A stretch of DNA of 31,428 bases from Candidatus Micrarchaeota archaeon (GTDB lineage: Archaea > Micrarchaeota > Micrarchaeia > Norongarragalinales > UBA8480). Position numbers and translations under genes: made by a program. The notes beneath the pieces are model-generated. The model was not told the DNA's origin. It worked only from the letters and a program-made list of their open reading frames with translations, and ran no database searches. The stretch is taken from the NCBI GenBank assembly GCA_040753335.1, contig JBFMEM010000001.1:1-31428 (forward strand), read 5' to 3'. Shown here piece by piece: positions 10,858-31,428 of this stretch (position 1 is its first letter; every line of letters starts with the position of its first letter).

Positions 10858-13236
10858 CTAGGGGCAAATGGCGCTGCAGTTTCCAGCGCCGGCAAGGGGG
10901 GGAGTACAAAGCGTGTAAGCGTCCACTTGGTAACACAAGTTTATTCCGCACGTGTCGGCGGCGCTCGTTTGGTTCGCGTAAGCCGTTGCATCATTGTAAA
11001 CGTCGTAGAGCGCAGCGCTATTACAGTAGTTGTTTCCGCTGAACGAGTTCGAGAGAGAGTAGTTGAGAACCCTGAGGCCATAGGCGGCGCTTCTCCTAGC
11101 AAAGTTGTTTTGCAGCGTGTTCTGCGTGACGTTGTACATCACGCCGCTTGTCGCGTTGTAACAGCCGGAAAGGGCCACGCCGTTTCCGTTTGAACTGTCG
11201 TCAAAATAGTTTCCCGCTATCACGTTGGCAGCGCAGTTTCCGCTCTCGTATCCTGGCATACAGTTAGTCTGCATCAAAAGGCCAAAGCCGTTTGCGCTGG
11301 CGTTGTTGTTGGAAACCGTGTTGTTTTGGCCTCCGGAAAAAGAGACGCCGTAGTAGAAGCCAGTAATGTTGTTGTCGTCGACAGTGTTGTTCGTCGCGTC
11401 GAAGTACTGGAAGGCTATTCCTGACCCCCCCCATCCGCACGGCCCGGCGCCACAGCTCGTCAAAGTGTTTTGTGAAACGACGTTGTTTTGCGACCTAAAT
11501 ATGTCTATTCCATCACCCGGGTTTTCGGTTACGGTTATAGAGTTGTTTCTTACGGTGCTGTTTTCCGCGCCAAGGCGGACGGCTCCCTTTACGAAGGCCG
11601 AACCCCGCGAGTAAATGGTGTTGTTTTCAACCAACGCGCCGCACGCCGTGCAGCCGAAGAAAGCAAAATTGCAGTCAAAGTAGTTGATTACCGTTTGCGC
11701 GCTTGAGTTGAAGAAATTGTTTTTAATGTCGGCCTTCATTTCCGACATTCGAATGCCTCCCGTAAAGTTGTTGCCGTCAACAGAATTGTTGTCGTTCACT
11801 GTGTTGCAATTTGGGTCGAACCACAGTGAATAGATTCCCTCGTCCTCGAAATAATTCTGTTCGAAAGAATTGTCGGCAATTCCGTTCCCCCAGTTAGGCA
11901 ATAGCATCACTGACATTTGAACATTGTTTACGACTGTGTTGTTTTTGAAACTCGAGTTTTCAAAGCCGCCGCCGTAAACGCCGTAATTGTTTTCGTTGAA
12001 ATAATTGTAAGAAGCATTCATTGCCTCTATTCCGTCGCCTAAATGCAGTCCCGCGCCCGCGAGGCCGTAGCCGTTGACGTACAAGTTGTTGTTGTAAAAA
12101 CTAAAGTTTTCTGGAATAACTAGCCACACGTCTTTTCTTCCGAAGTAAGCGCCGAAGTCGAACTTGGTTATGTTACAGTCGTGAACCGTGACGTTGTTGA
12201 CGTCGTTTGCCTTTATTCCATACGAGTCCACGGCCGCCGGCCCCGTAAGCGTGTTGCCCAAGCAGTCTATTACGACGTCCGACGTGTTTACTATCACGCC
12301 GTTTCCCGCGCACAACAAGCTCGTGTTCACGTGGTACTCTCCCGAACAATTGATGGTGTAAGGACAGTAACTGATGTTGGTCACGCCACCGCCGCAAATG
12401 ACGAAAGACCACGTCGTAGACCCCGTGCACTGCGCAACGCTGTCGCAAACAGTCACGTTCCACGAATAGCTTCCAGGGGAAGAAACGTCGAAGGAAATCG
12501 AGTTAACAGAGTTGTTCGTCAAAGGAGTTCCGTTCACAGCAGAATACGTTCCGCTCGCGTTCGTCACGTAAAGAGTAGCTCCGGAAAAGCCGACGTCGTC
12601 CACAGGAGTATAGTTGAACAAAACCGTTCCCGGCAAAACGCTTCCGCCGTCAGGAGGCTCGTTTAACGACGCAGTTGGAAAAACGTCGCCGCCTCCCCCT
12701 CCGCCGGCGCCGCCTCCGTAGCCGGCTGCCGAGCACGCAGTGCGCAAGCCAAGCGACCACGAGAAGTAAACAGACGGGTCTCCGTCCCAGTAGGACACGT
12801 AGCAATGGTCCTTCCAGTAGCCGACCGGCCCAAATGGATTGCGAATGTCGAACACCACCTTCCCCTTAGGGGGCACGACCTGATTATATACGGTGACTGG
12901 CTCGGAATAGCGGACTACGGTCAACAGCCTTGCGGCGTCTCCGTCATTGTAAACATGCACCGGCTTGCACTCCAAGATTTCGTCAGTTGACCTGCAGCTG
13001 ACGTACGCGCTCGAGTTGGCCGTGTAATTAGACGCGAGAACTTGGAACGGCGCGGCGTACTCGGGGTCGGCCAGCAAGCCGACGTCCAACCCCGCCGCGC
13101 GGACCGTCGCCTTCGTCTCGGTGGGCACGCTCCGCAGGAAGACGAGAATCAACACCACCACTAGGAGAATGACGCTGACAGTAAGAATGTAGTCAAGCGC
13201 GCCCTGCGCCTTCCGTCTTTCTTCCGGGTTATCCAT
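10858..13236 (-). CDS. Class III signal peptide protein with an Ig-like domain and right-handed beta-helix (NosD/PbH1-like) repeats
   Basis: RRKAQGALDYILTVSVILLVVVLILVFL; many N/G-rich repeats (NNTVSNNNASANGFGLLM); Cys-rich C-terminal cap; GAGGT SD. Confidence 0.8.
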   Translation of the reverse strand: MDNPEERRKAQGALDYILTVSVILLVVVLILVFLRSVPTETKATVRAAGLDVGLLADPEYAAPFQVLASNYTANSSAYVSCRSTDEILECKPVHVYNDGDAARLLTVVRYSEPVTVYNQVVPPKGKVVFDIRNPFGPVGYWKDHCYVSYWDGDPSVYFSWSLGLRTACSAAGYGGGAGGGGGGDVFPTASLNEPPDGGSVLPGTVLFNYTPVDDVGFSGATLYVTNASGTYSAVNGTPLTNNSVNSISFDVSSPGSYSWNVTVCDSVAQCTGSTTWSFVICGGGVTNISYCPYTINCSGEYHVNTSLLCAGNGVIVNTSDVVIDCLGNTLTGPAAVDSYGIKANDVNNVTVHDCNITKFDFGAYFGRKDVWLVIPENFSFYNNNLYVNGYGLAGAGLHLGDGIEAMNASYNYFNENNYGVYGGGFENSSFKNNTVVNNVQMSVMLLPNWGNGIADNSFEQNYFEDEGIYSLWFDPNCNTVNDNNSVDGNNFTGGIRMSEMKADIKNNFFNSSAQTVINYFDCNFAFFGCTACGALVENNTIYSRGSAFVKGAVRLGAENSTVRNNSITVTENPGDGIDIFRSQNNVVSQNTLTSCGAGPCGWGGSGIAFQYFDATNNTVDDNNITGFYYGVSFSGGQNNTVSNNNASANGFGLLMQTNCMPGYESGNCAANVIAGNYFDDSSNGNGVALSGCYNATSGVMYNVTQNTLQNNFARRSAAYGLRVLNYSLSNSFSGNNYCNSAALYDVYNDATAYANQTSAADTCGINLCYQVDAYTLCTPPLAGAGNCSAICP

Positions 13237-13247
13237 CTGACCTCACG

Positions 13248-16124
13248 CTACGGACACGCGTTCGTGCAGTTGCTTGTCGGAAAAACGTTCGGGTCACACG
13301 CGTAGTATGCATCCATCTGGCTGCACTTGTTTATTCCGCACGTGTTGTTAGTCGAACTGCTTGACTGCATTTGAGCCGCGGACACGTCGTAGGTGTTGCC
13401 GCACAGCGTGTTGTGGCTGAAGAGTGAATCATAGGCCGAGCTTAACGTTATTCCGTTGCCGCTGTTGCTGTTCATCGTGTTGTACTCGATTATAGTGCCA
13501 ACTGCATAAGTGGAGCCGCACAAGCCGTCACCGCTTCGCGTGTAAGAAAACTCGTTGTAGGAAATGTTGTGGTAGGGAGCGCCTGCCGGGCCGTACAAGT
13601 ACAAGCCGCACCCCGCGTTGTCGGAAGCATTGTTGTTGAAGACCGTGCTGCCCGTGCCCGGCGTGAAGAAATCTATTCCATAGTGGTTGTTGTGGCTAAT
13701 GTTGTTGTTCTGGATAGTGTGGCCGCCGCCGTAGTAAGCGGATATGCCTTTGCCTCCGTTGTTGCTTACTTCATTAGAGTCTATTGTAATGCCAGAGGCA
13801 CTCTCAGCATAAAGCCCGTTTCCCGAGTTGAACGAGATATTGTTGTTCGTGATGGCGTGGCCGCCCCCCCAGTAAGCGTATATTCCGGTGGGGTTGTAGC
13901 TTATTTCACTCGAGTCGACGATGGCGCCCGTAGATTCTTGGAGTTTAATGCCGTAAATGGTGTTGCTTGAAATGTTGTTGTCAGTAAAGTTGTTGCCGGC
14001 GGATGGCGGGTAGAGCGAAGCGCCTTCGCTGTTTTCAACCAGCGAGTTGTTTATGAAAAAGTTGTTTGAAGAAGAAACGGTGACGCCGGAAGAGAAGTGT
14101 TTGATGACGCAGTTTTCGACCGTCACGTTAGTGGCGTCCGAAATGGTGACTCCTGCGCCGCTTCCAGTCGGGCCGGTCAGCGAGTGTCCCTGACAGTCAA
14201 TAACTGAGTTGGAGCCCCCTGAGTAAACGCTTATTCCATTGCCCAAGCAAGACAAGTCTGAGTCCAGCACGTACTCGCCGGGACAGCCGTTTATGTAGTA
14301 ATCGCAGTAGGAGATTGTTTGAGGCCCGCTTGAACACGCGCTGAAATAGTCGGAGGAATTCGTGCACTGGCCGTCGTTGTCGCACACTTGAACAATCCAG
14401 AAGTAACTTCCCGCGCTCGCGACGTCGTACTCCAAGGTGTTCAGCGAATTGTTGTAAACCGACGTAGTCGAATTCTGCAAAACGTACGTCATGCCGCCGT
14501 CGCTTGACAAGTACAACTCCGCCTTCGACGGGGGAGTAAAGTCCTCGTCGTCAGTCGGAGTAAAGTTGAACGCAATTACTCCAGTGTAAACGCCTGCGCC
14601 GCCGACTGGCGCGTTGAGCGTGACCACCGGCCACTGGCTGTAGCCGGCCGCAAACTTTTCCCGCGTCGAGTTCCTGCACTGGCCGTCGTCGTCGCACACT
14701 TGCACGAACCACTGGTAGTACTGCGAAGGAACCGTCAAAGTGTATTCCAGCGTGTTCACCGTCCCGTTGGCCACCGACGTAGTCGAATTGACGAGCGGCA
14801 GGTCGCTCACGGGCGCGAGGGAAACGCGCGGCTCGGCGGACGCGAAGCCCGCGGGAATTCCTGCGTAAAGCTCTGCCTTCGAAAAACCGTGGTCGTCAGT
14901 TGGAGTGAAGTTGAAGCCAACGGTTCCCAAGTAAACGAATGAATTAATCGGCTCGTTGAGCGTCACCTGCGGATAATTGCTTGGGCCGCACGAACTGTGG
15001 CAGTTGGCTCCCCCCACGTTTGCAAAGGAAAGCCGCTTAAGCCACGAAGCAAAACCTTTCTTTATCTGGCCGCCGCCTGCGCACGCCGCGTTTGCTTGGC
15101 ATAAGCCGCCGGTCGCGGTGTTGTCCACGCAACTGCATTCATCGCACGCGTCGCCAGTGAAACTCGCTTGAGCAGCGTCAAAAGTGAATCCCGCCCCAGT
15201 GTTGCTGCAAGCACGATTGCCGCTCAAAACGTTGTTGCTTCCCGCGAAGTAGAAGCCCTGGTTGTTGTCGTGCGCGTAATTGTTCGCAAACTCTGAATCA
15301 GTTGAAGCGGAGTATATTCCGCTGCAGAAGCCGGTTACCACGCAGTTTTTGACGGTAATTCCCGACAAGCCGCCGCCGACTTGAATGCCGTAGTAGTTGT
15401 TGAGGCACTCCGCGTCGTTTCCGGTAATAAGGTGGTTTTGGCAGTCCAGTTCGACGTTCGAAGCCCCGATGACTGCACAAGTCTGGGGCGCGTTCTGGTC
15501 TGCCTCCAGGCAGTACTTGTTGTACTGGCCTCCCCCGAGGGTCTGGGTTCCCGTGCTGCAGTCCAACACAACCGCGCCGGGAACGTTGTCGCACATTTTA
15601 ACGTACCCCTGTGCCTCGCACAGGCTCGAGTCGCCATACGCCCACGCCTGAGCGCTTCCTATGCCGGGCTCTTGGCCGGAGCCGGCGTCAACTGCCGCGA
15701 AGGCGTAACAATGGTTAGGCAGGTAGTCCGGCAAGTCTTCGGCAGAGAGCGTGCCGCCGGGCCGGAGCGTCGTGCTGAAAATTTCTTGCGGCTTCGAATA
15801 ACGCCATATTGACAACAGCATTTCGCCTGTCGCGTCGTTGAAAATCTCGAGGGGACGGCAAACAGTTATTTCCTCCGTCGACATGCAAGTCAGGTTGTAG
15901 AACGTGCCTGGAACAATGCCGGCAACAAACAGCCTTTCCGGCGTTGCGTAAGTAGTGTTCGCGAGCAAACCCAAGTTCGCTCCCGCCGCTTGAATGTTTT
16001 CCTGGGTTTCACCCAGCGTGCCGCCGCGGATTATCACCATCGCGATTACTACAATCAGCAGAACGCCGCCGACAATCAGAATGTACTCGAGCCCGCCTTG
16101 CGCCATTTTCTTCACTTTCTTCAC
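13248..16124 (-). CDS. Class III signal peptide protein with two Ig-like domains and two beta-helix blocks; paralogue of the downstream gene
   Basis: Likely start GTG 16124 (MKKVKKMAQGGLEYILIVGGVLLIVVIAMV), downstream of TTTTAAAAA near 16162-16170. The ORF-track extension to 16346 overlaps gltX and is unlikely. Confidence 0.8.
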   Translation of the reverse strand: MKKVKKMAQGGLEYILIVGGVLLIVVIAMVIIRGGTLGETQENIQAAGANLGLLANTTYATPERLFVAGIVPGTFYNLTCMSTEEITVCRPLEIFNDATGEMLLSIWRYSKPQEIFSTTLRPGGTLSAEDLPDYLPNHCYAFAAVDAGSGQEPGIGSAQAWAYGDSSLCEAQGYVKMCDNVPGAVVLDCSTGTQTLGGGQYNKYCLEADQNAPQTCAVIGASNVELDCQNHLITGNDAECLNNYYGIQVGGGLSGITVKNCVVTGFCSGIYSASTDSEFANNYAHDNNQGFYFAGSNNVLSGNRACSNTGAGFTFDAAQASFTGDACDECSCVDNTATGGLCQANAACAGGGQIKKGFASWLKRLSFANVGGANCHSSCGPSNYPQVTLNEPINSFVYLGTVGFNFTPTDDHGFSKAELYAGIPAGFASAEPRVSLAPVSDLPLVNSTTSVANGTVNTLEYTLTVPSQYYQWFVQVCDDDGQCRNSTREKFAAGYSQWPVVTLNAPVGGAGVYTGVIAFNFTPTDDEDFTPPSKAELYLSSDGGMTYVLQNSTTSVYNNSLNTLEYDVASAGSYFWIVQVCDNDGQCTNSSDYFSACSSGPQTISYCDYYINGCPGEYVLDSDLSCLGNGISVYSGGSNSVIDCQGHSLTGPTGSGAGVTISDATNVTVENCVIKHFSSGVTVSSSNNFFINNSLVENSEGASLYPPSAGNNFTDNNISSNTIYGIKLQESTGAIVDSSEISYNPTGIYAYWGGGHAITNNNISFNSGNGLYAESASGITIDSNEVSNNGGKGISAYYGGGHTIQNNNISHNNHYGIDFFTPGTGSTVFNNNASDNAGCGLYLYGPAGAPYHNISYNEFSYTRSGDGLCGSTYAVGTIIEYNTMNSNSGNGITLSSAYDSLFSHNTLCGNTYDVSAAQMQSSSSTNNTCGINKCSQMDAYYACDPNVFPTSNCTNACP

Positions 16125-16180
16125 CTCAAACGCCCCCTCCACGGCAAATAAGATACCCTCCTTTTTAAAAAAGACGTGCG

Positions 16181-17380
16181 TCACGCGCGCTCTTTGTACT
16201 TGCGGTTGAACGCCTCTAGCTTTGCTTCGTCGAGATAAGAATCGCTTTTCCCGATGCCGCTGCTTATGATGTACTCCCGTATTGCGCGGGGGTCGATTCC
16301 CTTGGCGCGCATTCCCCGCAGCGTCGGCGCCCGCGGGTCCTCCCACCCCGTCAGCTCTCCTTTTGCTATCGCCTCGCGGATGGCCGACTTGTGCTCGAGT
16401 CCACCCCGTATTTTCAGCACGCCTGTTTCAACCGAGTGCGGCTGAAGCCAGCCAAAGGCCTCGTAGACAAAACGCTGTTTCTCGGCGTTCAACTCGTGTT
16501 CCTTCCCCCGGATCACGAGGTTTATCTGCATCTCGTGGTCGTCAACTGCCGCAGCAAAGTTGTACAACGGCCAAACGCGGTACCTCGTTCCAGTAACGGG
16601 GTGGGCCTCGTCGATTATTCTTAGCATCACCCAGTCGCGAATCGACGAATTCGGGTGCGCCATTCCGGTCTTCATGCGCACCACCGCCTTTTCTTCGGCG
16701 TGCGCGCCGTCAAGCATCTTCCGCCACTCGCCCAGGTTTTCTTGGGCAGCGCGCAGGCGGCAGCCGCACTCCCTTGCTTCGACGCGGTTGCGCTGCATTT
16801 CGTCCTTCGAGCAGGTGCAGACGTAAGCCTTTCCTTCGGCCAGCAGCTGCTCGGCGTACTCGTAATACAATTCCATTCGCTCGCTCTGCTTCACGACTTT
16901 GAAGATGTTGCAGCCGAGCCACTTCAAGTCTTCTTCAATGAGTTTGTAGAACTCGGGAACCGGTTTTTTAGTTCGCGGGTCGGTGTCTTCGAAGCGCAGC
17001 CAAAACTTGCCGCCGTATTTCTTGGCGTACTCGTCGTTCAAAACCGCTTGCTTGGCGTGGCCCATGTGCGCGTAGCCGCTTGGGTTCGGCGCAATCCGCG
17101 TGTTCACTGCCTCGCCCGGCTTTACCCACCGCAAGTCAGGCAGGCCTTCGCGCTGTTTTTTTTCCGGAAACTCGTATTGCGCAACTTCCGCTTCCACCTG
17201 CTTGCGGGGCAGCTCGTTGACTTCCGCGACTACTTTCACCACGAGCGCCATCGCCGCCTTCATGTCTTTCTTTGCTTCGGGCGATTCGGCAACCACTTTC
17301 GCGACCACCGCCCCAGGCTGGGCTTTGCCGTAGTCGAAGGCGTTTTTCAAAGCGTGCTTGCGCACGACTTGCTCGAGCAT
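16181..17380 (-). CDS. gltX: Archaeal-type glutamate--tRNA ligase, catalytic portion only (399 aa)
   Basis: Archaeal N-terminus (KHALKNAFDYGKA), TRIAPNPSGYAHMGH, LRFEDTDP, YVCTC...CGCR, VWPLYNFAAAVDDH, IRGKEH, GWEDPRAPTL; ends just after LEAFNRKY. Confidence 0.85.
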   Translation of the reverse strand: MLEQVVRKHALKNAFDYGKAQPGAVVAKVVAESPEAKKDMKAAMALVVKVVAEVNELPRKQVEAEVAQYEFPEKKQREGLPDLRWVKPGEAVNTRIAPNPSGYAHMGHAKQAVLNDEYAKKYGGKFWLRFEDTDPRTKKPVPEFYKLIEEDLKWLGCNIFKVVKQSERMELYYEYAEQLLAEGKAYVCTCSKDEMQRNRVEARECGCRLRAAQENLGEWRKMLDGAHAEEKAVVRMKTGMAHPNSSIRDWVMLRIIDEAHPVTGTRYRVWPLYNFAAAVDDHEMQINLVIRGKEHELNAEKQRFVYEAFGWLQPHSVETGVLKIRGGLEHKSAIREAIAKGELTGWEDPRAPTLRGMRAKGIDPRAIREYIISSGIGKSDSYLDEAKLEAFNRKYKERA

Positions 17381-25908: not shown

Positions 25909-26304
25909 ATGGCAAGATCATTAGAAGAAATATTATCTGTTTCCTCGGAAAACCGACGCGTGCTAACACCTGAAGAATTAGAGGTTTGGCAAGCATTTTT
26001 CGGCGCCCGGCTAGCCGCTGCTTTGCACTACGAACACGAGGAGGTAAGCAAAAGCAAAAACGTCGTCCACCTGAATCAGTTCTTAGTGAAATGCATAAAC
26101 GAAGGCCGACTCGATTACGGCGACACTATGAGAAGAATAAAAAACCCCCTTTATTTCAAGGAATGCGCGATTACCGAAGCCAGAAACACGGTCGCGGCAG
26201 CGAAAGCCTATGACAAGACGGTGAACGAAACTCGTTTACGCGAGTTAATTGCGGCAATTCACCCACGACTGGTTGAACATGCTGAAAAAATTTTAGAGCG
26301 CTAA
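25909..26304 (+). CDS. Hypothetical protein, 131 aa
   Basis: ATG 2 nt after the scpB stop; more AT-rich than flanks; no motif recognised. Confidence 0.55.
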   Translation: MARSLEEILSVSSENRRVLTPEELEVWQAFFGARLAAALHYEHEEVSKSKNVVHLNQFLVKCINEGRLDYGDTMRRIKNPLYFKECAITEARNTVAAAKAYDKTVNETRLRELIAAIHPRLVEHAEKILER

Positions 26305-26966
26305 TAAGACTTACTCACCACTCTTCTTATTTCCTTCGCCTTGTCTTCGCCGATGCCGGAAACTTCGGCCAGTTCGTCCTCGTGCGCCTCGAAAACCGCT
26401 TCAACGCTGCCGAAGTGCTCCAACAACTTTCGCGCAGTAGACGGACCGATTGCAGGAAGGCTTTCGACAACAAACTGCTGCTGGTCCCGGACTGAAAACG
26501 CTTTTTTCTCAAGCCGCAAGCGGTGTTCCTTGTGAGGCGAAAGCTGTTCGCGTTCAGCCAAGTGAAACAAAAAATCTCCTAGCGCAACCTCGTCTTCGAA
26601 GAAAAGCACTGGAATCCCGTAGTCCACGCACAATGAAATCAACGCGCCTTCCAACGCCTTTTCGTTCAAGCGGCAAAAACCGTTTCCCACTACGGTTATC
26701 AGCGGGCGTTCGAAGTTTTGCTTCAGTTCCTGCGCCTGGCTGAACAGCCTGCCGTCAACCACGCTTGACTCCAAATCTCCGCGCTCCTTGCGCTCCACTC
26801 CGACGCGCTGGGAAACAACGAAGTCAGCTACGTTCAAACGCTGGACCCTCAACTCGGCGCCCAATTCACGCAAGCGCGCGACGCACTCGTTGGAAGCCTC
26901 GCGGTCATCGACAAAAACAATCGGCTTTCCCTTCTGCGGCGAAAAAACAAGTTCCTGCATTTTCAC
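26301..26966 (-). CDS. xpf: Stand-alone XPF/ERCC4 nuclease with helix-hairpin-helix domain
   Basis: VFVDDRE, LNVADFVV, GVERKERGDL (ERKxxxD), LPAIGPSTARKLLEHFGSV, VSGIGEDKA. Confidence 0.9.
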   Translation of the reverse strand: MKMQELVFSPQKGKPIVFVDDREASNECVARLRELGAELRVQRLNVADFVVSQRVGVERKERGDLESSVVDGRLFSQAQELKQNFERPLITVVGNGFCRLNEKALEGALISLCVDYGIPVLFFEDEVALGDFLFHLAEREQLSPHKEHRLRLEKKAFSVRDQQQFVVESLPAIGPSTARKLLEHFGSVEAVFEAHEDELAEVSGIGEDKAKEIRRVVSKSY

Positions 26967-29320
26967 TTGGCTCCTTCCTTAAGTTTTTGCTTAGCGAATT
27001 CAATTATTTGACGCACGCGCTCGCGCGTCAGCCCAAGACGACCTCGTTTCCGCCGGGTTATTAACGACCCGAGTTTCAAGCCTATCTCTTCGAGAGTGCC
27101 GCCGCCAGGGTTTTTGTCAATAAATTCATTCACCGCTCGTTCAGGCGTTCCTTCCGCGTGTTCTCCAGGGTAAGGAATTCCGAAATACGCGCGTATGGCC
27201 GCGGTGTGCGGTGACTCCAAGGCCGCAAGCGCGTTCTCTCCCGCCTCCCGCACCAAAAGTTTTTCCTCCGGCGAAGCCTCGGCGGAAGGAACGAAGTCGC
27301 TTAACGTCTTACGGCCAATTGCTTTTTCAAGCGAGGCAGGACTTTCTTCCGCCGCAAGAATTGCCGCCAACCCTTTTGCGCTCAACCCCGTTTCGGCGCG
27401 CAGTTCTTCAAAGGTAGGTATTTTGCCTTGCTCCAAGTACCTTTCGCGCGCGGCGGCAACCGAACGCATTTTTTCCACGAGGTGGACGGGAAGCCTTACC
27501 TCCCTGGCCAGCCGATCCGCCAAAGCACGGGTAATCGCGTGCCTAATCCACCAAGTTGCGTACGCGCTGAAGTGAAAGCCGCGTTCCTGGTCCCATTTCT
27601 CAACGCCTTTCATCAAGCCGATGTTGCCCTCCTGAATCAAATCCAGCAATTCCACTTTCGGCCGAAGATACCGGCGCGCAATGGGCAGAACCAGCCTCAG
27701 GTTGTGTAAGATCATTTTTTCTTTCGCAGCCGCGTCTCCTTCGCGCGCTTTCCTCGCGAGTTCCTGCATCTGCTCGTGAGACAAAACGGGGTGGCGCCCG
27801 AGTTCTTCGAAGTACAGGTTTCTGGCATCTAGAGACGCGTCCTTCTCAAGGTCTTCGATTTTCCTTCCCTCTCTCGCCGCCTTGTCTTCAGCGGTTTGCA
27901 GCCGTCTTAAAACCGAGACGGCGTGCCCCCTGGCGTCAATGCCCGCAGCGTCTATGGCTTCCAAAACGCGCTTGAGGCGCCCGCATTTCCATCTCGCCAT
28001 TGCGTCGGCCTTAGCAGGCGAAACTCCTTTTGCGAGCAGTTCGCTTCGCCTGCGCAACGCCCTTTCCTTTAGCGGCGCAATCACTTGCGCAATGCGCTCC
28101 AACGACCAACCCAACGCCCACAAGTGGTCTTGGACGCGGAGCGGCGTGCCCTCGAATTCTTTGCTTAAGGCAAGAATGCGCGGCTCGGCCATTGCTGGCG
28201 AGAGCTTGGAAACCGAGTAAGGCAACCGAGTCGACAGGCCGTGTTTTGCTAGCAGTTCCCGCCACGCGTTTTCCTTGGCAACGGCAGCGTCATGGCGGCC
28301 GACGAGCGCATTTATGTTGCGGCGAAACGCTTCGCCGGAATACTGGTTGAAACGCCACCAGTGGCCATCCGCCTTCAGGCCGCGGACGCCGACTACGTCG
28401 TAGAAAATGCGTAAGTGCCGCAGTATTTCGTCCGGAGCGCGCTGGGCCGTCAGATACTCCGGCGGCTCGCCAATTTCTTTTTCGGCAACAAAGTCAGCCA
28501 GCGCCTTTTCAGCGGCTTCGCGGCGCTCTTTTTGCCTGCGAAGGCGTTCGACGTCGGCAGTAATGAATTCCTTCGACCTCATCAACTTGGGAAGTTGAAC
28601 TGGAAGGCCAGCGTTGACGAAAAGCATTGCCTTCTCCAAAGCAGTCCGCGACGACAAACGGCTTCTCTTCAACGTACGACGCACTTTCTTTTCCGGCAAG
28701 CCAAGCCCGACCAGTTTTTTGATTGCCCCCTCGTTACCGAGCTTCGCCTTATCCTTTTCAACAAGGCGGCGGACAACCTCATCGATCCTCGATTCCGCGC
28801 CTATTCTCGCAAAAAGAAGCTCGCTGGCCCCAAGCGGCCGACCGATTCTTTCTTCAAGCGCCCTTATTCTGTTCCACAAACGAACCGGCCGCGGCCAGTA
28901 GCCGAAAAGACGAGTCACCCCCCTTTTAGTCAAACCCATTCGCTCAAGCGTTGCGCGGACACCCTGTTCTGCTTCTTTTTTTTCAGCACGCTTTCTTGCC
29001 GCGGCTTCCCTCTGCGATGCGCGCGTCTTTCTCGCACCAACCAGCCGACGCGCTTCAGAAACCAACAAGTCATCGCGACGCGTAATCAGCCGCAAGTCAG
29101 TCAGTTGAACTGGCCGCTCAAGAGTCTCTTCAAGCAAACGAATCCGACGAAGCGAAGTCTCGGGATGGACTGTCTTGAACAAAATCCGCTCGTGATTAGG
29201 CGAAAGCTTGCCAAGCCCGCGCGATTCAAGGAACTCACGCAAGTCGCCCGCTGCTTTCTCGCGGGCATCCAAAAAAGCCTTCTTGCGTGCCTCAGACCAA
29301 GCAGGCGAAAACCTAGGCAT
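26963..29320 (-). CDS. Sigma70-family (RpoD/RpoS-like) protein with about 490-aa N-terminal helical repeat extension
   Basis: Region 1.2 DARNLYFEELGRHPVLS; region 2 NLRLVLPIARRY...LLDLIQEGNIGLMKGVEKWDQERGFHFSAYATWWIRHAITRAL; VRLPVH; region 3 PTFEEL; region 4 TLEEIG...LTRERVRQI. Start set at ATG 29320. Confidence 0.9.
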   Translation of the reverse strand: MPRFSPAWSEARKKAFLDAREKAAGDLREFLESRGLGKLSPNHERILFKTVHPETSLRRIRLLEETLERPVQLTDLRLITRRDDLLVSEARRLVGARKTRASQREAAARKRAEKKEAEQGVRATLERMGLTKRGVTRLFGYWPRPVRLWNRIRALEERIGRPLGASELLFARIGAESRIDEVVRRLVEKDKAKLGNEGAIKKLVGLGLPEKKVRRTLKRSRLSSRTALEKAMLFVNAGLPVQLPKLMRSKEFITADVERLRRQKERREAAEKALADFVAEKEIGEPPEYLTAQRAPDEILRHLRIFYDVVGVRGLKADGHWWRFNQYSGEAFRRNINALVGRHDAAVAKENAWRELLAKHGLSTRLPYSVSKLSPAMAEPRILALSKEFEGTPLRVQDHLWALGWSLERIAQVIAPLKERALRRRSELLAKGVSPAKADAMARWKCGRLKRVLEAIDAAGIDARGHAVSVLRRLQTAEDKAAREGRKIEDLEKDASLDARNLYFEELGRHPVLSHEQMQELARKAREGDAAAKEKMILHNLRLVLPIARRYLRPKVELLDLIQEGNIGLMKGVEKWDQERGFHFSAYATWWIRHAITRALADRLAREVRLPVHLVEKMRSVAAARERYLEQGKIPTFEELRAETGLSAKGLAAILAAEESPASLEKAIGRKTLSDFVPSAEASPEEKLLVREAGENALAALESPHTAAIRAYFGIPYPGEHAEGTPERAVNEFIDKNPGGGTLEEIGLKLGSLITRRKRGRLGLTRERVRQIIEFAKQKLKEGAK

Positions 29321-29343
29321 GAACAAAGAAAGGAAAGGCAGAG

Positions 29344-29350
29344 TTTAAAA
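29344..29350 (-). promoter_or_regulatory. TATA box of the large sigma70-like gene (leaderless spacing)
   Basis: Minus-strand TTTTAAA 23 nt upstream of ATG 29320, just after the stop of the smaller sigma gene. Confidence 0.6.
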
Positions 29351-29356
29351 CAACTT

Positions 29357-30337
29357 TTATGCAGCCTGCCTTCGCAGGTCGTGAAGCGCCCGGTCTAACT
29401 GTTGTTTTACCGCCTGGTGCGAGACCCTGCTCTTTTTCGCGCCGACGAGCGGCATGATTACTGAACCGATTTCCGTCAACGACACGGCCCCCGCCCACGA
29501 CGTGCGCTTTTTTGCCTCGGCCCTTCGTTTCGCCTCGGCTATCAAGCGGTTTACCTCGAAGTGCACCCTGTTTCTCACTTCTGGAAAGCGAATTCCGTAA
29601 TACGCGCGCAAAACCGCTTCCTGCGCCGGACTCTTTTCACCCAGTTTTTCCAGCAACGCGTGCGTGAAGCGCGCGCGGTCCCTGCTCAAAAGCACCTGCT
29701 CAGGCGAAGGCCGCTTCGAAACCGCCGCCCGCCGCTGCACCTTGCTCAGCGTTTCTTCCATTCCCGCCTCTTCCGCATACGCCACCGGCTGGCGCAAGGC
29801 GGCCAGCGCTCCCCGCAGCGTGTCCGCGGCGAAAGCGTGCGCGCCAGCATAACCCCTTCTCTCCCCGCGGACTGCCTTCAGCAGTTGCGTGAAAGACAAC
29901 TCACCTTTTCCGGCTGCCGCGCGTTTTTCACGCACCCTCTTAACTGCCGCCATTGCCTCGACAACGGTAGGCGTGATTCTGGCGCCCCTTCCCCCTAGTT
30001 CGCTTGTAATCGCCTCGATTATTTGCCCGCGAATGCGCGGCACCGCCCACGTGCTAAAGCGGCCTCTTTTAGGGTTGAAGGAATTCAGGGCGCGCACCAA
30101 GCCAACGTTGCCGGCTTGATGCAAGTCTTTTTTCGGAAAGCCCAGCTCCAAATACTGCCTGGCAACTGACTTGACGAGCCCCTGGTTGCGCTCGACGAAC
30201 TCCTTCCTCGCCTCGGCGTCGCCAAGGCGCGCCCTGCGGCCAAGCCGTCGCTCTTCTTCCAGCGTCAAAAGCTGGGGAGGGCGCGGACGCTCAACTGGAG
30301 CCGCGGGGAGTTCGCGCCGCGCGGGATAAACCGCCAT
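29357..30337 (-). CDS. Divergent sigma70-family protein (326 aa) with FliA/SigB-like region 2.3-2.4
   Basis: LLTLEEERRLGRRARLGDAEARKEFVERNQGLVKSVARQY, DLHQAGNVGLVRALNSFNPKRGRFSTWAVPRIRGQI, SPEQVLL, SLTEIG...VSHQAVKQ. Start set at ATG 30337. Confidence 0.85.
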   Translation of the reverse strand: MAVYPARRELPAAPVERPRPPQLLTLEEERRLGRRARLGDAEARKEFVERNQGLVKSVARQYLELGFPKKDLHQAGNVGLVRALNSFNPKRGRFSTWAVPRIRGQIIEAITSELGGRGARITPTVVEAMAAVKRVREKRAAAGKGELSFTQLLKAVRGERRGYAGAHAFAADTLRGALAALRQPVAYAEEAGMEETLSKVQRRAAVSKRPSPEQVLLSRDRARFTHALLEKLGEKSPAQEAVLRAYYGIRFPEVRNRVHFEVNRLIAEAKRRAEAKKRTSWAGAVSLTEIGSVIMPLVGAKKSRVSHQAVKQQLDRALHDLRRQAA

Positions 30338-30360
30338 GCGAAAATAAGAAAGCGGCAAGC

Positions 30361-30368
30361 TTAAAAAA
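30361..30368 (-). promoter_or_regulatory. TATA box of the small sigma70-like gene (leaderless spacing)
   Basis: Minus-strand TTTTTTAA 23 nt upstream of ATG 30337, the same spacing as for the large sigma gene. Confidence 0.55.
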
Positions 30369-30433
30369 CGCGGCTAGCCGCCCCCCGCGCCGCACGGAAA
30401 TATTTTTATACTATAGCAACTATATAAGTAGCC

Positions 30434-30652
30434 ATGTACACTACCATTCAGTTGAGCGACGGCCTCAGGAGTATGCTGCAGGCAAGGAAAATGAGCGCGA
30501 AGGAAAGCTATGAGGAAGTGATCAGGGACCTGCTTGAAGACTCCAGCGCGCTGTCTGACGAAACGAAGAAAGAACTGACGGAAGCCCGCGCCGAAGTAGC
30601 CGCGGGCCGCTTCAAAACCCTTTCTCAAGTGAAAAAACGACTTGAAATATAG
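30434..30652 (+). CDS. Putative antitoxin (ribbon-helix-helix-like N-terminus)
   Basis: TTIQLSDGLRSML...ESYEEVIRDLLE; overlaps the RelE-type toxin; AT-rich promoter with ACTATA repeated near 30409-30424. Confidence 0.8.
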   Translation: MYTTIQLSDGLRSMLQARKMSAKESYEEVIRDLLEDSSALSDETKKELTEARAEVAAGRFKTLSQVKKRLEI

Positions 30653-30914
30653 CGGCGCGGCATTTGAAGTAATTCTGTCCGAGAAAGCAGAGCGACAGCT
30701 CAAAAAACTGGACAAAAGCATTCAACGCCGCGCGATCGCGGTCCTCGAAAGAATTCGGCTCAGGCCTGAAGCACACCTACAAAAACTTGTTGACGACCCT
30801 GGCTTCAAACTCAGGATAGGCGACTACCGCGCCATAGTCGATGTCGACAAGCAGCAAAAACGCATCGCCGTACTAAAAATAGGACACCGCAAAAACATTT
30901 ACAAAAACCTCTGA
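30642..30914 (+). CDS. relE: RelE/ParE-family toxin
   Basis: FEVILSEKAERQLKKLD, KLRIGDYRAIV, VLKIGHRKNIY. Confidence 0.9.
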   Translation: MKYSGAAFEVILSEKAERQLKKLDKSIQRRAIAVLERIRLRPEAHLQKLVDDPGFKLRIGDYRAIVDVDKQQKRIAVLKIGHRKNIYKNL

Positions 30915-30917
30915 TAC

Positions 30918-31427
30918 TCAAAAATCGCCGAGCGAACGCTGGCGTGCCTCAAACGGAGCACTGCCCGCGATTTCGCCCTTGATTTTCTTCAACAATTTCT
31001 TCATCTTGGTTTCCTTGCGCTTTGAAACCCAGTGGTAAGCCTCGTCCTTAGTCCCCCTCGCGACGATCGCGGTTACTTTGCCTGCCTTAATCCTTCCGGC
31101 ACGCCCTCGGCGTTGAATCAACCGCACTTCCGAGGGAACTGCTTCGTAAAAAATCACCTCATCCACCGAGACGACGTCCAATCCTTCCTCTCCCACCGCA
31201 GTAGCCACCAACGTATTGAATTGCTTTGCGCGAAATTCGTCAAGCAATCCAATCTGCTGTTTCTGCGCCATCCCGTCTTCCCCCGCTTTTCCCACCAACA
31301 GCCTCGCGTTGACTCCCTGCAAGGCATTGAGCTCCGCAAGGATTTTTTTGGCGGAGTCGCGGAAGTGCACGAAAACAATCAATGCCTCTCCCTTCAACGC
31401 CGCTTCGCCGACGAGTTTCTTCAACGC
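30918..31427 (-). CDS. Hef/FANCM-like superfamily 2 helicase, C-terminal part (N-terminal part outside the window)
   Basis: ALIVFVHFRDSA, LVATAVGEEGLDV, VIFYEAVPSEVRLIQRRGRAGR, GTKDEAY; ends QRSLGDF (PIP-box-like) with no fused nuclease. Confidence 0.88.
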   Translation of the reverse strand, partial: ALKKLVGEAALKGEALIVFVHFRDSAKKILAELNALQGVNARLLVGKAGEDGMAQKQQIGLLDEFRAKQFNTLVATAVGEEGLDVVSVDEVIFYEAVPSEVRLIQRRGRAGRIKAGKVTAIVARGTKDEAYHWVSKRKETKMKKLLKKIKGEIAGSAPFEARQRSLGDF

Positions 31428-31428
31428 C

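Follow-up and report, generated by a model that had tools for sequence, protein, structure and literature searches.

Two adjacent genes in an archaeal genome encode proteins that genuinely belong to the bacterial group-1/2 sigma-70 family, in a branch of it that is adapted to archaea. The genes, here called sigBig and sigSmall, lie on the minus strand of a 31,428-nucleotide (nt) stretch of DNA from Candidatus Micrarchaeota archaeon (assembly GCA_040753335.1, contig JBFMEM010000001.1, positions 1 to 31,428), which is referred to as the window and whose numbering is used throughout. sigBig carries the regions and promoter-reading residues of a bacterial sigma factor behind an N-terminal domain without detected relatives, and sigSmall is a degenerate sister protein. 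Archaeal RNA polymerase initiates transcription with TBP, TFB and TFE and employs no sigma factors. Sigma factors as opposed to TBP and TFB are the textbook markers that divide bacterial from archaeal and eukaryotic transcription, and intact sigma genes in archaea without a bacterial polymerase have been an unexplained exception, known since 2021. A first-pass annotation, made from the letters of the window, had claimed two adjacent same-strand open reading frames (ORFs) with sigma-70 regions 1.2, 2, 3 and 4 amid archaeal core genes. Both ORFs are present on the minus strand, and Pfam and NCBIfam recover all the archaeal neighbours that it named: uS2 of the archaeal/eukaryotic type (TIGR01012, 257 bits), ScpB, an XPF/Hef nuclease and the C-terminal domain of a Hef helicase.

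sigBig retains the core-binding and promoter-reading residues of bacterial sigma factors

sigBig occupies positions 26963–29320 (minus strand) and encodes 785 amino acids from the likely start ATG at 29320, which matches the public gene call; an in-frame TTG is found at 29326. The Pfam model Sigma70_r2 (PF04542) matches the protein with 69.8 bits against a cut-off of 24 (E 1.8e-19), and the models of region 3 (25.6 against 25.3 bits) and region 1.2 (25 against 22 bits) also exceed their cut-offs. The NCBIfam model TIGR02937 scores 81.8 bits against a cut-off of 42.9 and extends to the C-terminus. In a phmmer search of the PDB, the top match is C. difficile SigA (7l7b, E 3e-45). Residues 490–787 of sigBig are colinear with the solved primary sigma factors from region 1.2 to region 4.1, and the recognition helix of region 4.2 can be aligned as well. 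The sigma2 domain (regions 1.2 and 2) is located at 27512–27817 by the Pfam coordinates and the comparison with E. coli RpoD, region 3 at 27263–27457 by the Pfam r3 match and the residue comparison, and region 4, which bears two insertions, at 26966–27220 by alignments including the PDB alignment of the recognition helix, all on the minus strand.

The column-by-column comparison with E. coli RpoD (from NC_000913.3) revealed that all 11 residues equivalent to sigma70 403–413 in region 2.2, the helix that binds the beta-prime clamp, are identical in sigBig. The equivalents of Y430, W433, W434, T440 and R441 are retained, while Y425 is replaced by F and Q437 by H. Region 3 keeps the equivalents of H455 and E458, and the recognition helix of region 4 keeps those of R584, E585, R586, R588 and Q589.

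sigBig was rejected as a primary sigma factor of the RpoD/SigA type, the best RpoD models giving 182 bits against cut-offs of 555–572. RpoS was likewise rejected for both proteins (TIGR02394, 186.7 bits for sigBig and 86.3 for sigSmall against a cut-off of 378.7), and every RpoD, RpoS and other equivalog model of NCBIfam stays far under its cut-off for both. Pfam finds no Sigma70_r1_1 domain in sigBig, which has an unrelated helical N-terminus in its place.

This N-terminal domain (27850–29320, minus strand) comprises about 490 amino acids and is all-helical, with weakly repeated modules. It has no match in Pfam or in the ESM Atlas, and a word search among 5.8 billion proteins found no homologue. 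The AlphaFold model built from the single sequence contains helices throughout at low confidence, with a predicted local distance difference test score (pLDDT) of 55.8, and Foldseek matches nothing in the PDB to this model at E<=0.001. HHalign aligns residues 25–158 of the domain with its own residues 119–253 (E ~0.01), which gives weak support to internal repeats. The domain also weakly resembles the N-terminus of a sigma paralog on another contig of the genome, C64.

sigSmall is a degenerate sigma factor that keeps the fold

sigSmall (29357–30337, minus strand) encodes 326 amino acids from the ATG at 30337, again in agreement with the public gene call, and shares about 32% identity with sigBig. 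Sigma70_r2 is its sole Pfam match (60.3 bits against a cut-off of 24, E 1.6e-16), and TIGR02937 matches residues 49–331, up to the C-terminus, with 70.3 bits against 42.9. An AlphaFold model based on 22 aligned sequences (pLDDT 83.8) consists of sigma2, sigma3, a disordered linker resembling region 3.2, and sigma4, the last being a helix-turn-helix with an inserted helix. In Foldseek, about 300 columns of this model match chains of sigmaS and sigmaA at full length, with a probability of 1.00. Regions 3 and 4 of sigSmall are thus evidenced by the span of TIGR02937, the alignment, and the AlphaFold and Foldseek results. Region 1.2 is not recognisable, and a proline-rich stretch stands in its place; the regions ascribed earlier to both ORFs are therefore found as 1.2 to 4 in sigBig and as 2 to 4 in sigSmall.

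The functional residues are lost in sigSmall. E407 is replaced by A, the W433/W434 pair by P/R, and Q437, T440 and R441 by G, I and E, respectively. At the positions that read the −35 element, R584, E585, R586 and R588 are replaced by H, Q, A and K.

Two insertions in region 4 mark an archaeal clade

Region 4 carries two insertions that are common to sigBig, sigSmall, the paralogs on contigs C64 and C52, the ortholog in the congeneric genome G002 and the metagenomic protein P0017, and that are absent from the bacterial sigma factors in the alignment. The first, of about 20–30 amino acids, lies between helix 4.1 and the helix-turn-helix and forms a long helix (residues 264–282) in the sigSmall model. 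The second, of about 8–11 amino acids, is inside the turn of the helix-turn-helix and is a basic loop in sigBig. Because region 4 bears these insertions, the Pfam r4 model misses both proteins (no match at E<=0.01). Insertion 1 is also found in sigma-like genes from other families of the order and from another order of the class (G014, G035 and G352). In the closest paralog of sigBig (C64:946–2649), region 4 is tandemly duplicated, giving two insert-bearing copies of sigma4.

In a maximum-likelihood tree, sigBig, sigSmall, the C64 and C52 paralogs, the G002 ortholog, P0017 and a gene of genome G001 form a seven-member clade with a support of 95 in the Shimodaira-Hasegawa-like approximate likelihood ratio test (SH-aLRT). 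The nearest relative of sigBig is the C64 paralog (54% identity), and sigSmall sits on a long branch. Within the paralogs, which share 41–54% overall identity, regions 2.2 to 2.4 are almost invariant, which argues for selection within archaea. An exhaustive HMMER search of 1.84 billion representatives found no sequence closer than the clade members, artefacts of duplicated sequences aside, and no bacterial protein exceeds a plateau at about 45% identity; the near-identical bacterial hits that the first-pass annotation had named as a refutation, together with a lack of archaeal relatives and of expression, were not found there. A single-protein scan of genome contigs, biased by the search patterns chosen for it, returned only bacterial sigma factors at 31–54% identity. 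Viral contigs hold no close relative, with matches at the plateau level of 31–44% identity.

The sigma genes lie in a species-specific insert between two hef genes

The pair belongs to an insert of 3.95 kb that separates the hef helicase gene from the hef nuclease gene and carries sigSmall and sigBig on the minus strand and a ParE-type toxin with its putative antitoxin on the plus strand (junctions at 26961–26966 and 30914–30918). The insert starts 2 nt past the helicase stop codon and stops 2 nt short of the nuclease ATG. In genomes G001, G002 and G005, the order runs unbroken from uS2 through ScpB and hef nuclease to hef helicase, and the two hef genes adjoin directly, as they also do in G004; the G002 spacer measures 24 nt from the helicase stop to the nuclease ATG. 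The insert is missing from four related genomes, two of them congeneric, and the cassette is present in the hef spacer of this species only. Neither direct nor inverted repeats were found at the cassette ends, and the cassette contains no integrase and no viral genes. Its guanine plus cytosine (GC) content and tetranucleotide make-up are ordinary for the genome (78th percentile of windows).

The putative antitoxin is an ORF of 72 amino acids (30434–30652, plus strand) whose 3′ end overlaps the toxin start by 11 nt; its weak matches to VapB_antitox and DUF7557 are both below cut-off. The toxin (90 amino acids; 30642–30914, plus strand) belongs to the ParE/RelE family, with 41.1 bits to PF05016 against a cut-off of 23 and a match to a PHROG RelE-like toxin (E 5e-17). 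Toxin paralogs are found on contigs C47 and C64, the C64 copy being 1.4 kb from the sigma gene of that contig, and G002 lacks both genes at that place. The hef nuclease (26301–26960, minus strand) is identified by its XPF-type ERCC4 and HhH2 domains in Pfam and NCBIfam. Of the helicase gene, the window contains the 3′ part (30918–31428, minus strand; Helicase_C, NF010337), cut short where the contig ends; the 5′ part is found on contig C127.

The sigma genes and the toxin-antitoxin pair diverge from an intergenic region at 30338–30433, which contains an A/T-rich TATA-like box about 24–31 nt upstream of each of the two start codons (on the sigma side at about 30360–30370), a layout that suggests archaeal promoters of the leaderless type. 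Boxes of this kind lie about 25–33 nt upstream of four sigma paralog starts (the divergent region, C64, C52 and C104). Sigma70-type promoter matches are not in excess in the locus (2 against 1.3 expected). Since the insert ends 2 nt before the nuclease ATG, the nuclease is probably read together with the sigma genes.

An ORF of 131 amino acids without a family match (25909–26304, plus strand) is flanked by ScpB and the 3′ end of the hef nuclease. G001, G002 and G005 have no corresponding gene there, and the ORF is a second small species-specific insert at the locus. The window further encodes surface proteins that bear a class III signal peptide, and a TrmB regulator. The genes at 10858–16346 (minus strand) specify two very large proteins of the right-handed beta-helix (NosD-like) type, probably the surface adhesins of a symbiont; one of the two carries a class III (pilin-type) signal peptide of the archaeal kind.

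The sigma family is multi-copy and patchily distributed

The host genome contains six sigma-like genes on five contigs. A Sigma70_r2 search was positive in 18 of 41 relatives, the host included; sigBig-like proteins (E<=1e-10) are present in 8 of the 68 genomes of the order, and a profile of the region-4 insertions detects members in 5 of 401 genomes of the phylum. The genes around the paralogs are of archaeal or housekeeping type and encode PcrB, a DUF2240 OB-fold protein, PGK and a GAF-cyclase. At the hef locus, the host genome alone among its congeners has sigma genes. The PGK locus contains a sigma gene in the host and G001 and not in G002, and the cyclase locus contains one in the host, G002 and two independent public assemblies. 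For the syntenic ortholog pair at the cyclase locus, the ratio of nonsynonymous to synonymous substitution rates (dN/dS) is 0.38, compared with 0.06–0.14 in neighbouring genes, which indicates that this sigma gene is constrained but fast-evolving. Two same-strand adjacent sigma-like genes are also present at G061:C56:2565–4078 and G013:C54:7217–9973, so paired sigma genes recur.

These results bear on the earlier view of an acquired, duplicated and retained family. That the family was acquired and has diversified is supported. A recent tandem duplication does not explain the pair, which is too divergent and in which sigBig is closer to a paralog on another contig than to its neighbour. Nor is retention supported, the pair being an insert of a single species within a family of patchy presence.

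A second architecture recurs among the sigma paralogs: those at C97:2–1798 and C104:610–1863 and on G014:C48 have N-terminal arrays of HNH_repeat, a homing-endonuclease-associated repeat. A PP2C/SpoIIE-type phosphatase (C104:3146–3565) is encoded two genes from a sigma-like gene, a proximity that may be due to chance. Bacterial phosphatases of this type feed the partner-switching control of sigma factors.

The host has a complete archaeal initiation set

The host genome is metagenome-assembled and DPANN-like (0.99 Mb in 151 contigs, 86% complete, 1.3% contaminated). It encodes TBP, TFB and TFE and is complete in the archaeal initiation set, with no bacterial core enzyme detected. No rpoB or rpoC match in the genome exceeds the bacterial cut-offs, the only matches being the archaeal-type Rpo1 and Rpo2, and four model archaea used as controls show the same below-cut-off pattern; the absence of bacterial rpoB and rpoC is not proven, because the genome is 86% complete. 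TFE is found in 40 of 41 relatives, which indicates that no factor has been replaced by sigma, and a role of sigma as a TFE replacement was rejected for this reason.

The sole TBP homologue (C3:9130–9378) of the host has a single TBP repeat in a frame of about 108 amino acids; beyond the stop codon of this frame comes a membrane ORF that is unrelated to it. The same holds for 35 of 41 genomes of the order, the host included, with one strong TBP match each in frames of 93–182 amino acids. Canonical archaeal TBPs have two repeats, and the host lineage may use a homodimeric half-TBP. Published single-repeat TBP-domain proteins coexist with a full-length TBP (PMC3597702). Rpo1 (C59:1196–6133) is a single frame of 1665 amino acids, as in G019 and G022, compared with about 1130–1185 amino acids in other relatives. 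Its A′ and A″ parts seem to be fused, and the roughly 500 extra residues in some genomes could be an intein or an insertion.

Possible roles of the sigma proteins

We tentatively favour a role for the sigma proteins as accessory, dispensable DNA-binding transcription factors that would act within the archaeon and recognise promoter-like sequence; judged from the sequences, such a role is possible rather than probable. An archaeal divergent promoter of the TATA type would drive the cassette, with sigSmall, sigBig and the hef nuclease forming one operon. The intact recognition helix of sigma4 and the aromatic residues of sigma2 would allow sigBig to read DNA of −35-like and −10-like sequence, and its orphan N-terminal repeat domain, in place of region 1.1, may serve as a regulatory or partner-binding module. 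sigSmall may be a partner or competitor that does not read DNA, because its DNA-melting and −35 residues are lost and its fold is kept.

Several observations weigh against this role. The residues kept by sigBig are those used with the bacterial core enzyme, and bacterial sigma factors are poor DNA binders when they are not joined to core enzyme, which counts against a polymerase-independent function. The absence of the pair from the four related genomes indicates that its function is dispensable. In the clamp coiled coil of the host Rpo1, which aligns without gaps to E. coli beta-prime 250–313 (30% identity), the residues matching beta-prime R275, E295 and A302 are I, L and H, and the coiled coil does not vary among the relatives, whether or not they have sigma genes. 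Single substitutions at these three beta-prime positions impair the formation of the sigma70 holoenzyme (PMC8321222). The invariance irrespective of sigma genes gives no sign of co-adaptation, and together with the difference at all three sigma-critical positions it makes canonical docking on the archaeal polymerase doubtful. As far as these residues can tell, a bacterial-style docking of sigBig on the archaeal clamp is unlikely, and of the roles suggested in the first-pass annotation (DNA binder, clamp modulator or effector on a bacterial polymerase), the clamp modulator is the one weakened. A complex prediction of sigBig sigma2 (490–624) with the Rpo1 clamp (1–340) gave a score of 0.00 in a run without controls, a result that has no weight in either direction.

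Another idea is that the sigma proteins are an alternative initiation factor of the archaeal polymerase, with sigma2 placed on the Rpo1 clamp coiled coil at the TFE/Spt5 site and a special class of promoters read by sigma2 and sigma4. The clamp coiled coil is a homologous element, the core-binding helix and the residues that bind single-stranded −10 DNA are conserved among the archaeal paralogs, and −10 binding in bacteria requires clamp contact. We nevertheless hold this idea to be unlikely, given the three altered Rpo1 positions, the retention of TFE with nothing replaced, the lack of an excess of sigma70-type promoters at the locus and the dispensability of the genes among congeners. A slightly stronger, still rather unlikely, candidate is an inter-domain effector, by which the archaeon would redirect the RNA polymerase of a bacterial partner or prey, as phage sigma factors do. 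The bacterial interface and the promoter-reading residues of sigBig are intact while the archaeal clamp lacks matching residues; the family has several copies, evolves fast, is patchily present and is linked to toxin-antitoxin genes, which is typical of host-interface genes, and the N-termini vary among paralogs, from the orphan repeat domain of sigBig to the HNH_repeat arrays of two others. The genome also encodes bacterial-type peptidoglycan hydrolase domains (SLT and two Peptidase_M23; C5:76–474, C8:15844–16212 and C70:3682–3945), which are absent from the four model archaea and hint at dealings with bacterial cell walls. Across the order, SLT occurs in 24 of 41 genomes and M23 in 17 of 41. 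A link between these hydrolases and the presence of sigma was rejected as not significant (M23 in 10 of 18 sigma-positive and 7 of 23 sigma-negative genomes; no trend for SLT), which counts against the effector, as do the lack of a signal peptide and of a known delivery system, the region-4 insertions, which may disturb docking on the beta-flap, and the hosts of DPANN archaea, which to our knowledge have so far been archaea.

The sigma genes might have no function at all: a mobile cassette stabilised by its toxin-antitoxin pair would carry them along, and they would persist by addiction or drift while heading for decay. The species-specific insert with its toxin-antitoxin pair, the second sigma and ParE neighbourhood on C64 that G002 lacks, the degenerate and long-branched state of sigSmall and several paralogs, and a dN/dS above that of neighbouring genes would all fit this account. 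Against it stand the intact reading frames, a dN/dS below 1, functional motifs of sigBig that are fully preserved at 46–59% divergence from its paralogs, and the persistence of the family across a class-level group; no integrase or terminal repeat marks the cassette as mobile, and we regard functionless passengers as quite improbable. Bacterial contamination or a chimeric contig is very unlikely to have produced the locus. The assembly is fragmented and metagenomic and the contig terminates inside hef, but both flanks of the insert belong to an archaeal gene pair that adjoins in four relatives, which speaks against a chimera. The nucleotide composition fits the genome, paralogs on other contigs adjoin archaeal genes (PcrB, DUF2240), orthologs of one paralog keep the same context in G002 and two independent public assemblies, and the best bacterial identity is only about 45%.

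Comparison with known systems

sigBig shares with bacterial SigA/RpoD and RpoS the colinear regions 1.2 to 4.2 and the residues that read the −10, extended −10 and −35 elements. Unlike the bacterial group 1/2 factors, it has no region 1.1, carries insertions in region 4 and an unrelated N-terminus, and occurs in a genome in which no bacterial core enzyme was found. A functional analogy to the archaeal factors TFE and TFB, which bind the clamp and stabilise open complexes, is possible at the clamp coiled coil, since bacterial sigma2 occupies the site used there by TFE in archaea. There is no sequence relationship, and with TFE still present the sigma genes have been added to the native factors without replacing any. 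Should a DPANN-domesticated sigma branch work with the archaeal polymerase, which we think improbable, it would constitute a third, hybrid mode of initiation alongside TBP, TFB and TFE, and this in archaea where the one TBP that can be detected is of the single-repeat kind. Of similar weight is the variant in which the archaeon delivers sigma proteins into a bacterial partner and thereby takes over its polymerase.

The MzaA protein of the MZA anti-phage system (NF041931, PDLC02203) also combines a long N-terminal extension with a sigma domain in accessory gene neighbourhoods. In sigBig, the sigma domain alone matches it (159.7 bits against a cut-off of 800), and the N-terminus is unrelated. 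PADLOC detected no MZA component and no other defence-system protein among the cassette proteins that were scanned, and membership in this defence system was rejected. Sigma genes are carried on mobile DNA by phages and DPANN viruses, and sigBig matches PHROG 351. A paper of 2025 described two rpoS-like genes from viral contigs of DPANN archaea, of which one is a prophage (PMC12647753). Unlike these, the cassette has no viral or integrase genes, and the viral matches reach just 31–44% identity.

A close known counterpart is fam00359 (PMC8204110), a family of sigma-70 proteins on archaeal contigs of small DPANN genomes, beside TBP, TFB and TFE. Castelle et al. reported these sigma-70 genes in 2021 in DPANN archaea, especially Woesearchaeota, and excluded mis-binning (PMC8204110); they detected no anti-sigma factor and did not settle on a mechanism. 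With this report and that of the prophage genes, the locus is not the undescribed system that it had been taken for. By its description, fam00359 is recognised by sigma-70 domains on a contig with archaeal marker genes, and the window has both, with uS2 and Hef as markers. The earlier paper describes presence only. The present locus adds the pairing of an intact with a degenerate sigma protein, the 490-amino-acid orphan N-terminus, the two region-4 insertions, six paralogs in a genome of about 1 Mb and the toxin-antitoxin-linked insertion between hef genes. As far as we found, the architecture, the pairing, the clade-defining insertions and the hef insertion are new. The locus is a test case in which an intact sigBig stands beside its degenerate sister and region-4 insertions mark adaptation within archaea, and the insert-free congeneric genomes provide natural minus-insert comparisons.

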